Positions 1 through 4,073 of a stretch of DNA of 64,000 nt are shown in pieces (the stretch's first letter is position 1; each line of letters opens with the position of its first letter). Origin of the DNA: an uncultured bacterium. Lineage in GTDB: Bacteria > Desulfobacterota_D > UBA1144. The notes under the pieces were generated by a model that did no database searches, was not told the DNA's origin, and saw nothing but the letters and a program-made list of their open reading frames with translations. A program made the position numbers and the translations under genes. Where the stretch lies: contig CAJWZJ010000001.1 of the NCBI GenBank assembly GCA_913050245.1, positions 50,859 to 114,858 on the forward strand. Reading direction: 5' to 3'.

Positions 1-511
1 CTAACAAACTCTTAGCTTGAGAATGATAGGCATCAACTAATTGATCAAAATTAATATTACGCGCACCAGGATCTTCCACATCAGGAGATATTGATGCGGT
101 TCTATTTGTTGGACCCATTGCACCAGCAATTAAGATTCTTTTATTTGTTTGAGAATCTTTAATAGCCTCTTTGGCAATTCTAACCGAGCAAAGATTCATC
201 TCGTCAGCTAAATTTTCTAAGCCATAATCTGCCTGTGCAATAATATTGGCTCCAAAGGTATTAGTCTCTATAATATTTGCGCCTGAATTTATATATGCAG
301 AGTGTATTTCTTTTATAATCTTACTGTTAGTAATATTTAGAATTTCATTATTACCTTTTAAATCTATATTATGATTCTTGAATCTGTCACCCCTGAAGTG
401 TTCCTCTTTAAGATGATATTTTTGAACCATAGTTCCAAGTGGGCCATCCATTATCAATATTTCACTCTCAGATAATTTATCCAATTCTTTAAAAATTTTA
501 GATTTTTTCAT
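1..511 (-). CDS. metH: B12-dependent methionine synthase, N-terminal homocysteine-binding domain (runs off window start)
   Basis: Hand translation from ATG at 511 gives MKKSKIFKELDKLSESEILIMDGPLGTMVQK...AGANIIETNTFGA...AGAMGPTNRTASISPDVEDPGARNINFDQLV, which carries typical MetH motifs. Confidence 0.93.
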   Translation of the reverse strand, partial: MKKSKIFKELDKLSESEILIMDGPLGTMVQKYHLKEEHFRGDRFKNHNIDLKGNNEILNITNSKIIKEIHSAYINSGANIIETNTFGANIIAQADYGLENLADEMNLCSVRIAKEAIKDSQTNKRILIAGAMGPTNRTASISPDVEDPGARNINFDQLVDAYHSQAKSLL

Positions 512-519
512 TATTGCCC

Positions 520-1326
520 TTACCACTGATCCCTCATCTCTCTTAATTCTTTAAACCTTTCTTCCATATTAAGACCGCTAAATTTCTCATTTTCTTTTAT
601 CAAATCCATAAAAGAAAACTCATCAATTCTAAAAAAAGGATTATATTTTTTTTCGAAATCAATATTTTTAATCGGTGATAATATATTTTTATCATTTTGA
701 GACAATAACTTATCAACCTCATTATAGAAATCTGTACCTTTCAAAAGAATAGACTTTAAGAAACCAATATTATTTTCAAAATAGTCATGTCCAGGTAATA
801 ATTTAAATGTTTCAGGTAAATTTTTCATTTTATGTTGTATAGTTCTGAACAACATTGATACGTCACCTCTAAATTTTACATTACCAACTCCACACGAAAA
901 GATGGTATCACCACATAAAATATAATCATTGATAATAATTGAAATATGTTCTGGACAGTGTCCGGGCGTATGAAGAATTTTTGCTGATAGTTTTCCAAAG
1001 CTCAATATATCATTTTCAAAAATATTATCGAAATCATAATCAAATATTTTTTTACAAATATCATGTGCTCTAAGCTTGATACCATATTTCTCTAAGAAGT
1101 AAGAATTACCTGCAATATGATCAGGATGAGCATGAGTATTGATAACCATCTTTGGAATTAGATTATTGTCATTAATTATATTTTCAATTGTATTATTATC
1201 CAATGGATCTATTATCAGCGCTTCTTTAGTTTGTGGACATTCCACCACATAATTTATATTTCTGTCACTATTTTCAACTAAAAATCTATATATCGTTAAG
1301 TCTTTCTCATCAATTTTTTCATACAT
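520..1326 (-). CDS. gloB: Hydroxyacylglutathione hydrolase (glyoxalase II)-like metallo-beta-lactamase fold protein
   Basis: THAHPDH (HxHxDH), HTPGH, GD, PGHDY and EKKYNPF motifs. Confidence 0.75.
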   Translation of the reverse strand: MYEKIDEKDLTIYRFLVENSDRNINYVVECPQTKEALIIDPLDNNTIENIINDNNLIPKMVINTHAHPDHIAGNSYFLEKYGIKLRAHDICKKIFDYDFDNIFENDILSFGKLSAKILHTPGHCPEHISIIINDYILCGDTIFSCGVGNVKFRGDVSMLFRTIQHKMKNLPETFKLLPGHDYFENNIGFLKSILLKGTDFYNEVDKLLSQNDKNILSPIKNIDFEKKYNPFFRIDEFSFMDLIKENEKFSGLNMEERFKELREMRDQW

Positions 1327-1361: not shown

Positions 1362-1389
1362 TTGTTTTTTCTATAATATTTATTATAAT
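1362..1389 (+). promoter_or_regulatory. Putative sigma70 promoter for the riboswitch/thrC-like transcript
   Basis: TTGTTT (1362-1367), 16 nt, TATAAT (1384-1389); predicted start site falls at the 5' arm of the riboswitch P1. Confidence 0.5.
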
Positions 1390-1391
1390 TT

Positions 1392-1446
1392 TTGATGTCG
1401 TCATTTAACTCTACTTGCAACGACATTAAAGAAATGCTAAACGGAG
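1392..1446 (+). promoter_or_regulatory. SAM-II class riboswitch aptamer
   Basis: P1 UUGAUGUCG(1392-1400)/CGACAUUAA(1421-1429); loop AUUUAA; UUGCA(1415-1419) pairs with UGC-U-AAA(1435-1441); P2a CUCU(1409-1412)/GGAG(1443-1446). Matches the SAM-II H-type pseudoknot consensus by eye and lies in a Met locus. Confidence 0.82.
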
Positions 1447-1504
1447 AAAAGGTTTTAACTTAAATCCTTTCCTCTTCGAGTTACGTATTTGATAGGAGCA
1501 TTTT

Positions 1505-2734
1505 ATGTCTTTTGTAACTTGTCTGAAATGTATTGATTGTAGTCCCGCTTGTGAGTTTGAGAAGCAAGCCTTATATGTTTGTGATGACTGCTTTGGTCCT
1601 CTAGAACCTAGCTACGACTATGAAAGAATTAAGGAAGAGCTCACAATTGATAAAATTTCAAAAAGACCTAAGAATATGTGGAGATACAAGGAACTGCTGC
1701 CAATAGATAATGAACCAACAGTTGGAATGAACACAGGCTTCACACCACTCATAAAGGCGAATAATCTTGCAGAAGTTTTAGGCGTTAAAAATTTATATAT
1801 TAAAAATGATGGTGTAAATTTTCCTTCTTTATCTTTTAAAGATAGAGTTGTAGCGGTTGCTCTATCCAAAGCAATAGAGCTTGGTTTTGATACTGTTGGA
1901 TGTGCATCTACAGGTAATTTGGCAAACTCAGTTGCTGCTCACTCAGCATCAGCAAAACTTAACAGCTTCATATTTATCCCATCTAATCTTGAAGAGGCAA
2001 AAATTCTTGGAACATCAATATATGGAAAAAATGTTATAGGTGTTAATGGAAACTATGATGAAGTTAATAGATTATGTACAGAAGTAATAGGTTCAAATAA
2101 ATGGGGTTTTGTTAATATCAATTTAAGAACATATTATGCCGAAGGCTCTAAGACAGTTGGCTATGAAATAGCAGAACAACTTGGATGGAAAGCTCCTAAG
2201 AACATTGTAGTGTGCATGGCATCAGGTTCATTACTTACAAAAATATATAAATCAATTAATGAACTAGTTGACCTAGGATTAGTTGAAGATAATCAGACTA
2301 AGATCTATGGAGCTCAAGCTTCGGGTTGTTCGCCAATATCTACAGCAGTTAAAAATGGTTGGGAAACATTTAAGCCTGTTAAGCCAGATACGATAGCTAA
2401 ATCACTAGCAATTGGTAATCCAGCTGATGGTCTTAATGCAATTAATTTGTTAAATGACATTAATTCTTATTCAGAAGATGTCTCTGATGATGAAATTGTT
2501 AGTGCGATGAAATTATTAGCTGAGACAGAGGGAATATTCACTGAAACAGCTGGTGGTGTAACTTTAGGTTGTACAATTAAAATGTTAGAAAATGGGAAAA
2601 TTAATAAAGATGAAGATTTAGTTCTTGTAATCACAGGAAATGGTCTCAAGACTCAAGATCCACTTGTGAATAATATTAAAAAACCATTTATAATTAATCC
2701 AAAATTAGATGAATTTAATAAAATAAAATATTAA
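1505..2734 (+). CDS. thrC: Threonine-synthase-family PLP enzyme; probably a homocysteine-forming (MetM-like) paralogue given its context
   Basis: N-terminal Cys-rich ribbon, SFKDR PLP lysine, ASTGN, EGSKT and TGNGLK motifs; SD AGGAG. Confidence 0.85.
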   Translation: MSFVTCLKCIDCSPACEFEKQALYVCDDCFGPLEPSYDYERIKEELTIDKISKRPKNMWRYKELLPIDNEPTVGMNTGFTPLIKANNLAEVLGVKNLYIKNDGVNFPSLSFKDRVVAVALSKAIELGFDTVGCASTGNLANSVAAHSASAKLNSFIFIPSNLEEAKILGTSIYGKNVIGVNGNYDEVNRLCTEVIGSNKWGFVNINLRTYYAEGSKTVGYEIAEQLGWKAPKNIVVCMASGSLLTKIYKSINELVDLGLVEDNQTKIYGAQASGCSPISTAVKNGWETFKPVKPDTIAKSLAIGNPADGLNAINLLNDINSYSEDVSDDEIVSAMKLLAETEGIFTETAGGVTLGCTIKMLENGKINKDEDLVLVITGNGLKTQDPLVNNIKKPFIINPKLDEFNKIKY

Positions 2735-2745
2735 GGAGAAATTTT

Positions 2746-3021
2746 ATGGCTATTGTTAGAATACCTACACCTTTAAGAAGATTGACCAAAGAGCAAGATG
2801 AGGTTAATTCTGGAGCTTCTAATGTTAATGACTTGATTCAGGATTTAGAGGATCAATTTCCTGGAATTAAAGATAAAATATGTGAAGATGATGGTTCAAT
2901 TAGAAAGTTTATTAATATCTACATCAATGATGAGGATATAAGATTTTTAGAAGGGCCTGAAACAAATATTAAGGAAGATGATACAATTTCTATAATTCCT
3001 GCAATTGCCGGTGGTATTTAA
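2746..3021 (+). CDS. MoaD/ThiS/CysO-family ubiquitin-like sulfur carrier protein
   Basis: VRIPTPLR...[14 protein letters not shown]...IIPAIAGG-I; beta-grasp pattern with C-terminal GG plus one extra residue. Confidence 0.9.
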
Positions 3022-4073
3022 TTAAAAAAATCTTTAACTTTATTTATATACTCTGAAAAAGGATTTTTAGAATCTTTATCTACTTCTTTTTGATATTCTT
3101 CCAGTAATTTCTTTTGCTTACTATTTATTGATTTTGGAATTACAATGTTTAATTTAACATATAAGTCTCCATAGCCATCTCTATTTAGTATTTTAATACC
3201 CTTACCTTTCAACCTCATCATTTGTCCAGGCTGTATTCCAGATGGGATTTTTAATTCTGATGTCCCATTTAAAGTGGGAATTTCTATATGGCCACCTAGT
3301 ATGGCTTGAGAAATACTTAGTGGGACTTCGCACATTATATTTTCATCCTCTCTTTTGAAGAAAGGATGATCACTTACAACTATATCTATATAAAGATCAC
3401 CACTGGGTCCATTATTAATTCCTGAATCACCTTCACCAGTCATTCTAAGACGTGTACCTGTATCAACACCAGAGGGAATTTTAACTTCTAACTTTTTATT
3501 TTCAGTGTCATCAGCAAAAGCTCCCACTCCACCACATGAACCACATGTCCTACTTACAGAAAACATTCCCTGAGAATAATTAACCTCCCCTGTGCCATTA
3601 CAAGCTTTACAGACTTCATATGTTTTGGCTCTTCTTATAGAAACATTTTTTTTGGTTCCAGTTACAGCTTCTTCGAAAGTCAATGATACTTCAAATCTTA
3701 AGTCTCTTCCTTTGAACTGAGAAGGCCCCCTGTTACCTCTTCTGGACCCTCCTCTTCCTCCACCAAAGAAGTCATTGATTAAATCATCTAGATCTGGGAA
3801 TCCTCCACCTGGGAATCCACCTCCAGGGAATCCTCCGCCACCTGGCCCACCAGGGTTGACTGTACCAAAAGTATCATATTGAGATCTTTTTTCACTATCT
3901 CCTAAAACTTGATAAGCTTCATTAATTTCTTTAAATTTTTCTTCAGCTTTTTTATCATTTTTATTTCTATCTGGATGATATTTCAATGCTAGCTTCTTAT
4001 AAGCTTTTTTAATTTGCTCCTCTGAAGAACCTCTATCAATACCAAGAACTGAATAATAATCTTTATTGCTCAT
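3018..4073 (-). CDS. dnaJ: Chaperone DnaJ with reduced zinc-finger region
   Basis: J-domain HPD, G/F region, only two CxxCxGxG motifs, C-terminal substrate-binding domains. Confidence 0.95.
3795..3839. repeat. Three imperfect 15-bp tandem coding repeats (GGGFP x3) in the DnaJ G/F region
   Basis: tgggaatcctccacc / tgggaatccacctcc / agggaatcctccgcc. Confidence 0.8.

Follow-up and report, generated by a model that had tools for sequence, protein, structure and literature searches.

Why should a gene of the threonine synthase (ThrC) family stand behind an RNA that resembles a receptor for S-adenosylmethionine (SAM)? The question is raised by a locus near the start of the 64,000-nucleotide stretch of DNA analysed here (the window), which was taken from contig CAJWZJ010000001.1 of assembly GCA_913050245.1, an uncultured bacterium of the GTDB lineage UBA1144. 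The RNA in question is the leader of two genes, one for a pyridoxal phosphate (PLP) enzyme of 409 amino acids (aa) and one for a 91-aa sulfur carrier of the ThiS/MoaD family. An earlier reading of this DNA, made from its letters without database searches (the sequence-only reading), had described a two-gene unit of a ThrC homologue and a MoaD/CysO-like protein, divergent from a metallo-beta-lactamase-fold (MBL) gene and metH, and the open reading frames together with the Pfam and NCBIfam matches agree with that description. Our computational and comparative evidence supports the view, which we regard as probable, that the two genes form an operon of the MetM/MetO type, which makes homocysteine with the help of a sulfur carrier and is controlled by a divergent SAM-II-type riboswitch. 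The MetM/MetO route was published in 2024 and is included in GapMind 2026, so the pathway itself is already known; the novelty lies in the riboswitch variant, in the lineage that has it and in its regulon.

The ThrC-family enzyme, its carrier and a proposed route to homocysteine

Orthologues of the 409-aa enzyme, 49-62% identical to it, are found in Planctomycetota, Thermodesulfobacteriota, Pseudomonadota, Acidobacteriota and Actinomycetota (phyla as labelled by record titles and by the tree tool). At 81 of 109 orthologous loci, across many phyla, a carrier gene lies downstream on the same strand, and 22 of the 61 loci scanned (7/20, 8/20, 6/20 and 1/1) have a SAM-I riboswitch above the gathering threshold directly upstream, again on the same strand. 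In Nonomuraea gerenzanensis, whose locus was found by tblastn of plasmid records (the chromosome is filed as a plasmid), a SAM-I riboswitch precedes an enzyme 52% identical to ours, and the downstream carrier is 45% identical. These associations, taken with the separate ThrC paralogue described below, support the proposal of the sequence-only reading that the enzyme probably makes homocysteine under the control of SAM. The protein itself has an N-terminal Cys4 ribbon in which C9, C12, C26 and C29 are invariant, as is K112 of the SFKD motif, which from ThrC we take to be the PLP lysine; its best matches in the PDB are threonine synthases at 181 and 176 bits (solved structures 2ZSJ, 6CGQ, 1UIM and 2D1F). 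An orthologue was present in 40 of 201 sampled genomes of one phylum, that of locus L015 (the tally includes one unpublished genome), and none of those 40 genomes was recognisable as Streptomyces. A search with the Nonomuraea protein listed 120 actinomycete orthologues of the SAM-I-linked gene, with only Streptosporangiales among the matches listed; 81 carry a name, which in NCBI, UniRef and JGI is always 'threonine synthase', and 39 carry none. The family thus appears to be systematically mislabelled.

The 409-aa enzyme is probably not the threonine synthase of the organism, given that all 30 of its relatives (30/30) have another ThrC, of 443-449 aa and 28% identical to the 409-aa protein, and that it is the 409-aa type that is linked to SAM riboswitches and carriers. 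In a genome of the same genus the housekeeping thrC sits in a trkH-ribF-aroE-thrC-thiE-dhys block (dhys, deoxyhypusine synthase). In the assembly holding the window (0.80 Mb in 10 contigs, 30% GC, completeness 80%) trkH, ribF, aroE, thiE and dhys have no match, and the thrC query found only the 28% match to the MetM-like gene. Because the whole neighbourhood of the housekeeping thrC is missing, the absent second ThrC is attributable to an assembly gap, and absences in this genome should not be taken as losses. According to the sequence-only reading, its proposal would be refuted if this protein were the only ThrC of the genome and yielded threonine with no carrier adduct; it is the only copy in this assembly, where the block around the housekeeping thrC is missing. 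A quick maximum-likelihood tree, with midpoint root and SH-aLRT support only, unites the riboswitch- and carrier-linked genes, the Nonomuraea orthologue among them, in one clade with SH-aLRT 100 and a long stem, and leaves the same-genome ThrC paralogues outside. Four of five genomes with the SAM-I form hold two or more ThrC-family genes.

In the carrier the sequence Ala-Gly-Gly (A88, G89 and G90) is invariant among 36/36 orthologues and is followed by 0-15 variable C-terminal residues, here a single isoleucine (GG-I). Variable residues after the GG are typical of carriers that are trimmed by JAMM proteases. MoaE (PF02391) was found in 0/31 genomes of the class, with the control positive in 11/14, and a role of the carrier in molybdopterin synthesis is thereby excluded. 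The only ThiS-family genes in the genome are those of the 91-aa carrier and thiS, so that the same carrier may also serve a CysM-like cysteine synthase (TIGR01138, 327 bits, under the cut-off of 394). The CysM-like gene overlaps the gene of a 141-aa JAMM protein with no carrier gene between them (contig C4, approximately 97.9-99.3 kb; L091:3982-5324), an arrangement comparable to the mycobacterial mec-cysO-cysM cluster.

The survey, which covered 31 genomes of the class (25 with a completeness of 90% or more), agrees with the suggestion of a methionine module independent of metA and metX, since MetX, MetA, the MetB/C/Y/Z family (PF01053) and the HcyBio route were each found in 0/31. The activating enzyme and the JAMM protease that such a module would need are also there: a MoeZ-like 372-aa protein with ThiF and rhodanese domains (NF005902, 485.7 bits, E 9.6e-146, under the strict cut-off of 647) in 29/31 genomes, and a JAMM protein in 30/31 (Prok-JAB, 70.4 bits for the genome's own copy). 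The genome has hom and metK as well as a full-length metH, and HomK (TIGR02535) is present in 31/31 genomes, with 450.6 bits against a cut-off of 446.3 in the window's own. TIGR02535 is described in PMC13759103 as a HomK that complements an E. coli thrB mutant. In the route that we propose, homoserine would be phosphorylated to O-phosphohomoserine by the HomK-type homoserine phosphotransferase, while the MoeZ-like E1/rhodanese protein would charge the 91-aa carrier with a C-terminal thiocarboxylate. The 409-aa enzyme would then exchange the phosphate of O-phosphohomoserine for the thiocarboxylate sulfur of the carrier, and the JAMM hydrolase would both trim the extra residue of the carrier and release the product. 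The neighbouring MetH would methylate the resulting homocysteine, and MetK would make SAM from the methionine. The reaction assigned to the enzyme, from O-phosphohomoserine and carrier thiocarboxylate to homocysteine, is the part of this scheme that we infer from gene family and context.

Several known systems resemble the one proposed here. CysO, CysM, Mec and MoeZ form the cysteine route of Mycobacterium tuberculosis, in which, likewise, a PLP enzyme of fold type II takes sulfur from a protein thiocarboxylate for its phosphorylated amino acid substrate and a JAMM protein and MoeZ take part; in our locus, however, the enzyme belongs to the ThrC rather than the CysK/M family, its expected substrate is O-phosphohomoserine, and the carrier gene adjoins the ThrC-like gene and not cysM. 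HcyS, HcyD, HcyF and MetY are the homocysteine route of Wolinella succinogenes, which shares the dependence on a carrier thiocarboxylate and the removal by a JAMM protein of the residue after the GG, but which uses a MetY-type (PF01053) sulfhydrylase on an acyl-homoserine, whereas PF01053, MetX and MetA were found in none of the 31 genomes. Canonical threonine synthases have the same fold, PLP motif and O-phosphohomoserine substrate, and differ from our protein in that the latter has the extra Cys4 ribbon at its N-terminus, lies under a putative SAM riboswitch with a linked carrier, and falls in a clade apart from its paralogue.

The closest parallel is in Streptomyces, to which the sequence-only reading had correctly assigned a ThrC-like MetM/MetO route; the MetM/MetO/MoeZ/Mec route to homocysteine in S. 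albulus was reported by Hasebe et al. 2024 (Appl Environ Microbiol 90:e0124724), a paper cited by both PMC13759103 and PMC12172450. Table 2 of PMC13759103 (GapMind 2026) lists MetM, MetO, MoeZ and Mec as experimentally supported in Streptomyces and gives the MetO thiocarboxylate as a requirement of MetM. According to PMC12172450, a SAM riboswitch lies upstream of S. albulus metM and homologues occur in cyanobacteria, one of which, in Microcystis, is 51.6% identical to MetM and has a metO-like neighbour. The identity of MetM to ThrC of B. subtilis is 33% (bioRxiv 10.64898/2026.09.15.751699). In both systems the gene of a ThrC-family enzyme adjoins that of a ThiS-like carrier with a GG ending, and both have a MoeZ-type activator, a JAMM protein (Mec), a branch point at O-phosphohomoserine, a SAM riboswitch upstream (here a putative one) and a threonine synthase apart from the MetM-type enzyme, which is known here from relatives. 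The differences are that our switch is SAM-II-like (the riboswitches detected at the scanned orthologues are SAM-I), that O-phosphohomoserine would come from HomK (TIGR02535) and not from ThrB, that the carrier has one extra residue after the GG, and that the host is a marine genome of about 1 Mb and 30% GC in which no other homocysteine route was found.

The leader RNA and its expression platform

A permissive Rfam scan of positions 1300-1560 (261 bases) gave exactly two matches, both on the plus strand, both spanning the full length of the model and both of SAM-II type (Table 1), and no match to SAM-V at E <= 10; the leaders of the relatives give the same sub-threshold SAM-II-type matches. 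The sequence-only reading had called this leader SAM-II-like. The full-length matches to RF00521 and RF01726 uphold the likeness, but with both scores under the gathering threshold the RNA is a variant rather than a member of these families, and for the same reason it would be missed by annotation pipelines. The AUUU, UUGCA and GCUAAA boxes that are conserved by the Rfam SAM-II models are all present and invariant. Standard pairing is possible at 13/13 of the proposed aptamer pairs over 16 distinct sequences; only two pairs vary, each on one side, which makes covariation neutral, and the support for the aptamer is conservation, not covariation. In the window's own taxonomic family the core upstream of the orthologous gene is invariant at 18/18 loci, between flanks that differ, and it is missing at 12/12 loci from the remaining families of the class. 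With 17 copies as its training set, a covariance model recovered 38 strong copies (E <= 1.4e-8) in 19/19 genomes of the family and nothing better than E 0.11 in 12/12 genomes of the other families. The resemblance to SAM-II is therefore more than chance, and the leader RNA, at approximately 1392-1504, is best read as a divergent riboswitch of SAM-II type with SAM as its presumed ligand. At the 12 orthologous operons without the aptamer a different conserved block, TTTCTTTGACATCAAAAGCCGTTAGGGTAGTTTTTACTC-like, is found about 60 bases before the start; it may serve as a promoter or as a binding site for a different regulator.

Set against the architecture of SAM-II (RF00521, RF01726) and SAM-V described in PMC6061858, our leader has the same short P1, the same triplex-bearing H-type pseudoknot with its U-rich strand and its UUGCA and GCUAAA boxes, and a P2a that lies directly 3' of the triplex; as with those riboswitches, methionine or sulfur genes lie downstream. 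Unlike in SAM-II, the 3' strand of P2a (GGAG) is not the ribosome-binding site and lies 50 bases upstream of the Shine-Dalgarno sequence (SD), the leader continues with a further hairpin (P3) that shows covariation and with the invariant box CCUCUU(C)GAGUUAC, the host lineage is Dadabacteria, and sister genera have poly-Cys leaders. The same GGAG forms one side of the base of P3, a hairpin predicted by RNAfold in 23/23 leaders, with compensatory changes at four positions of its upper stem; position 9 is G-C in 8, G-U in 6 and A-U in 6, and position 10 is C-G in 10, U-A in 6 and U-G in 2. Within the box that follows, GAGTTAC is invariant in alignments of 17-18 leaders and present after 49/49 of the metagenome aptamers described below, and a purine-rich box occupies the place of the SD in all aligned leaders. 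No terminator-like site was found between the aptamer and the ATG, and a consensus promoter scan reported no promoter upstream of the aptamer, nor at the TATAAT that we picked out by eye.

From these elements we infer the ligand, the direction and the mechanism of switching. CCUCUU is complementary to the SD, and GAGUUA is complementary to UAACUC (1406-1411) of the aptamer core; both pairings are proposed from complementarity. When SAM is abundant it would bind the pseudoknot, and P2a would capture GGAG, which would open the base of P3 and free the CCUCUU box; the freed box would then pair with the actual SD and turn translation off. In the SAM-free state GAGUUA may pair with UAACUC of the aptamer. 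In a constrained fold GAGUUAC paired with the GUAACU of codons 4-6 in the ThrC-family gene, a pairing that we rejected, as the leaders that precede short reading frames keep GAGUUAC without that coding sequence.

Targets of the aptamer and layout of the locus

The aptamer is present in one copy per genome in the window's genus and in three or four copies in two sister genera. Each of the extra copies in the sister genera is followed by a reading frame of 21-32 codons that ends in 3-5 Cys codons (8/8), and these leaders precede a sir-cysH-cysN set, a set of a double rhodanese, a SufU/IscU-like protein and a 449-aa protein, or, as the fourth target of the aptamer, an SBP56-family gene (601 bits). 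An exact-pattern scan of metagenome contigs found 49 aptamer loci, 26 before a MetM-like gene, 12 before rhodanese/SufU-like genes and 9 before sulfite reductase, where cysH and cysN are also present if the contig extends far enough; two were too short, so that 47/47 of the classifiable loci precede sulfur genes. Such a regulon of sulfur acquisition and homocysteine synthesis fits a SAM-type ligand without proving it. The 449-aa protein (L196:1831-3180) has no Pfam or NCBIfam match, and a 42% identical copy is encoded in the window's own genome (contig C2:84600-85877). In one genome (contig C13) the aptamer before the SBP56 gene is decayed, retaining model positions 4-42 only, and its leader peptide is without the Cys run, which suggests a recent loss of control in that genome.

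Poly-cysteine leader peptides are described in bioRxiv 10.1101/834739 as cysteine-responsive attenuators in mycobacteria, and the arrangement in the sister genera has the appearance of a cysteine-sensing leader peptide placed under a riboswitch. We met no report of a poly-Cys leader coupled to a riboswitch, although we made no literature search specific to it. A more far-reaching interpretation, which we offer as a speculation that may well be wrong, is that marine Dadabacteria have in this aptamer a SAM-II subclass of their own, which acts as the master switch of their whole sulfur economy and forms a gate with two inputs (SAM through the RNA, cysteine through ribosome stalling at the Cys codons), and that one carrier feeds both the CysM-like and the MetM-like enzyme. 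If this were true, the aptamer would gate homocysteine synthesis by its only route in the window's streamlined genus, in the sister genera it would control the translation of poly-Cys leaders before the sulfite reductase, rhodanese/SufU and SBP56 (methanethiol-oxidase family) genes, and all amino-acid sulfur would pass through a single protein thiocarboxylate.

The features of the locus are collected in Table 1. The full metH frame of 1223 aa extends past the edge of the window (contig C1 of the genome). The stop of the MBL gene overlaps the metH start by 7 bases, which makes their co-transcription probable, and a spacer of 178 bases separates the MBL gene from the ThrC-family gene. The MBL-fold product is under the glyoxalase II cut-off (200.8 bits for TIGR03413) and has a weak match of 56 bits to a sulfurtransferase/dioxygenase model; a sulfur-related role is possible. 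Beyond the carrier gene and on the opposite strand lies dnaJ-grpE-ppx-(gamma carbonic anhydrase)-dnaK. DnaJ (3018-4073, minus strand) is short at 351 aa, and its CXXCXGXG zinc-finger domain gives a partial profile match of 27.5 bits against a Pfam cut-off of 32.7, and this streamlined genome may thus encode a reduced zinc finger. Contigs from four RNA-library runs (three studies) cover 1430-3300 at identities of at least 99%, one of them spanning the enzyme and carrier genes, but DNA may contaminate such libraries and the contigs are no evidence of a transcript, its start or its level. None lies over 1000-1364 and one short piece at 1365-1396 continues unlike the window; we place no interpretation on the uncovered parts or on the contig starts at 1430 and 1453.

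Table 1. Positions in the window of the leader RNA elements, the two operon genes and the divergent genes
Feature	Position	Strand	Basis or remarks
metH, 5' end (cobalamin-dependent methionine synthase)	2..526	-	PF02574 125 bits; NF007024/TIGR02082 N-terminal match
MBL-fold GloB-like protein, 268 aa	520..1326	-	Lactamase_B 59 bits; HAGH_C 36.5 bits; TIGR03413 147 bits
Candidate -10 box TATAAT, 7 bases before P1	1384..1389	+	By eye; conserved ATTATAAT block in alignments
Match to SAM_alpha (RF00521)	1387-1460	+	27.5 bits (gathering 36), E 1.5e-4
Match to SAM-II long-loop (RF01726)	1391-1450	+	24.2 bits (gathering 44), E 0.013
SAM-II-like aptamer core	1397..1446	+	SAM_alpha 27.5 bits, SAM-II 24.2 bits; full-length, sub-gathering
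Aptamer P1	1397-1401 with 1420-1424	+	Read onto the SAM-II/SAM-V architecture (PMC6061858)
Aptamer U-rich third strand	1403-1408	+	Same architecture reading
Aptamer P2a, CUCU with GGAG	1409-1412 with 1443-1446	+	Same architecture reading
Aptamer P2b, UUGC with GC..AA in the GCUAAA box	1415-1418 with 1436-1437 and 1440-1441	+	
GCUAAA box	1436-1441	+	
P3 hairpin	1443..1475	+	Lower stem GGAG (1443-1446) with CUCU (1472-1475)
Conserved box CCUCUUCGAGUUAC, CCUCUU(C)GAGUUAC	1471..1484	+	Downstream of P3
Shine-Dalgarno GGAG, 6 bases before the ATG at 1505	1495..1498	+	Read from the sequence
MetM-like ThrC-family PLP enzyme, 409 aa	1505..2734	+	PALP/PF00291 218 bits; TIGR00260 275.5 bits
MetO-like ThiS/MoaD-family carrier, 91 aa	2746..3021	+	PF02597 (ThiS) 62 bits; C-terminus ...AIAGG-I

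Alternative explanations and meaning for the lineage

A number of our own observations weigh against a SAM-controlled, carrier-dependent homocysteine operon, and they bear on different parts of it. At gathering thresholds the Rfam scan of the whole window gave 0 matches, both SAM-II-type scores being well below the curated values (27.5 against 36 and 24.2 against 44), and no riboswitch was detected at 34 of the 61 orthologous loci scanned. The TIGR00260 thrC equivalog scores the 409-aa protein at 275.5 bits, above both its cut-off of 167.1 and the 230.6 bits of the housekeeping ThrC, and thus fails to tell the paralogue groups apart. The sub-threshold Rfam scores, the TIGR00260 match, the lack of a further ThrC-family gene in this 80%-complete assembly and the name 'threonine synthase' on all 81 named proteins among the 120 listed actinomycete orthologues would be expected of an ordinary threonine synthase that lies beside a MoaD/ThiS-family protein and behind an AT-rich spacer resembling SAM-II by chance. 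Such an account is largely refuted, and we regard it as highly improbable: a second ThrC is found in every one of the relatives and its neighbourhood is missing here, the lack of MoaE leaves a MoaD with no molybdopterin synthase to serve, the conservation of the RNA greatly exceeds that of its flanks, further copies of it stand before other sulfur genes, and orthologues carry SAM-I. The function of the enzyme could nevertheless differ in its details. The 409-aa protein might be a SAM-repressed enzyme of sulfur amino acid metabolism that uses free sulfide on O-phosphohomoserine or makes another product, with the carrier serving the CysM-like cysteine synthase and being co-transcribed for the sake of co-regulation. 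The position of the CysM-like gene beside the JAMM gene without a carrier gene of its own, thiS being the only other ThiS-family gene, would suit this explanation, as would the 28 of 109 orthologous loci that have no carrier gene beside the enzyme. The predicted complex of enzyme and carrier gives only slight support to the pair, with a score of 0.43 against 0.00 for the best of three controls; the runs agree in at least 76% of contacts, with a partner predicted local distance difference test (pLDDT) value of at least 83. The mark for such predictions was reached by 58/80 solved complexes and 2/110 mismatched pairs, and those that passed at a score of 0.60 or under were 7 of the 80 solved complexes and both of the passing mismatches. 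The structure of the CysM-CysO complex has been solved, and likeness to it may contribute to the score. A carrier-independent enzyme is nonetheless unlikely in view of the adjacency of the two genes on the same strand in so many phyla, the absence of any other homocysteine route in the 31 genomes, and the dependence of the published MetM on the MetO thiocarboxylate (PMC13759103, Table 2). The grouping with S. albulus MetM (UniProt A0A059WBP2) rests on context, not on direct alignment, and the Microcystis homologue is reported in PMC12172450 to moonlight as a threonine deaminase without a rise in methionine, a result that counsels caution against assigning one function to the whole clade.

The explanation that we take most seriously besides the preferred one accepts the enzyme and carrier as proposed and changes the signal. 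The leader might sense another metabolite of sulfur status (S-adenosylhomocysteine, methionine, homocysteine or other), or its likeness to SAM-II might be superficial and its action depend on a protein or on the ribosome. It gains from the fact that every SAM-II-type score is under the Rfam gathering threshold and that SAM-V is not matched, and from the aptamer helices, in which 0 pairs have changed on both sides and for which the shuffle control was uninformative (500/500). The regulon of the sister genera, which covers general sulfur acquisition (sir-cysH-cysN, rhodanese, SBP56) and not methionine genes only, points the same way, but the S-box regulon of Bacillus also takes in sulfate-assimilation genes. 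The AUUU, UUGCA and GCUAAA boxes are present and invariant, both models align from end to end, and the orthologous genes elsewhere are under SAM-I, so that a ligand other than SAM, or no ligand at all, seems to us a minority prospect. SAM-I variants with a changed ligand are on record (PMC10853860). We considered a change to a spermidine-type ligand as a precedent for SAM-II and set it aside, as the source concerns SAM-I variants. The way in which the switch would act is a separate matter. In a constrained fold the SD was not less accessible in the SAM-bound mimic (probability unpaired 0.27-0.70) than in the free state (0.12-0.32); since the occlusion of the SD was not reproduced in this folding test, the switching mechanism given above is conjecture.

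With SAM-controlled homocysteine synthesis of the MetM/MetO type as the preferred reading, the locus can be placed in its organism. The closest named public records are Candidatus Dadabacteria bacterium UBA1144 and Thermodesulfobacteriota bacterium, at a protein identity of 76%. Pelagic Dadabacteria are presented in PMC8115339 as cosmopolitan, streamlined heterotrophs of the ocean, and the small size and low GC content of the assembly fit that description as given there. A term search of that genomic survey returned no occurrence of methionine, threonine or riboswitch, and in the literature searched we found no report of SAM-II with a threonine synthase, nor of Dadabacteria with methionine or a riboswitch.

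The riboswitch variant is missed by the Rfam thresholds and has a small, clean regulon of four sulfur operons, so that its ligand and mechanism are open to direct test, and the pairing of the aptamer with a poly-Cys leader would be a compact natural case of combined RNA-based and translation-based sensing. The pathway described in Streptomyces in 2024 is extended to a lineage with no other homocysteine route in any of the 31 genomes. Standard annotation would label the operon 'thrC-moaD', find none of metA, metX, metB, metC, metY or metZ, and predict methionine auxotrophy. Our analysis suggests instead that this lineage of Dadabacteria may be prototrophic for methionine by way of the MetM/MetO route, and such prototrophy would bear on models of cross-feeding and of the demand for reduced sulfur in the surface ocean.

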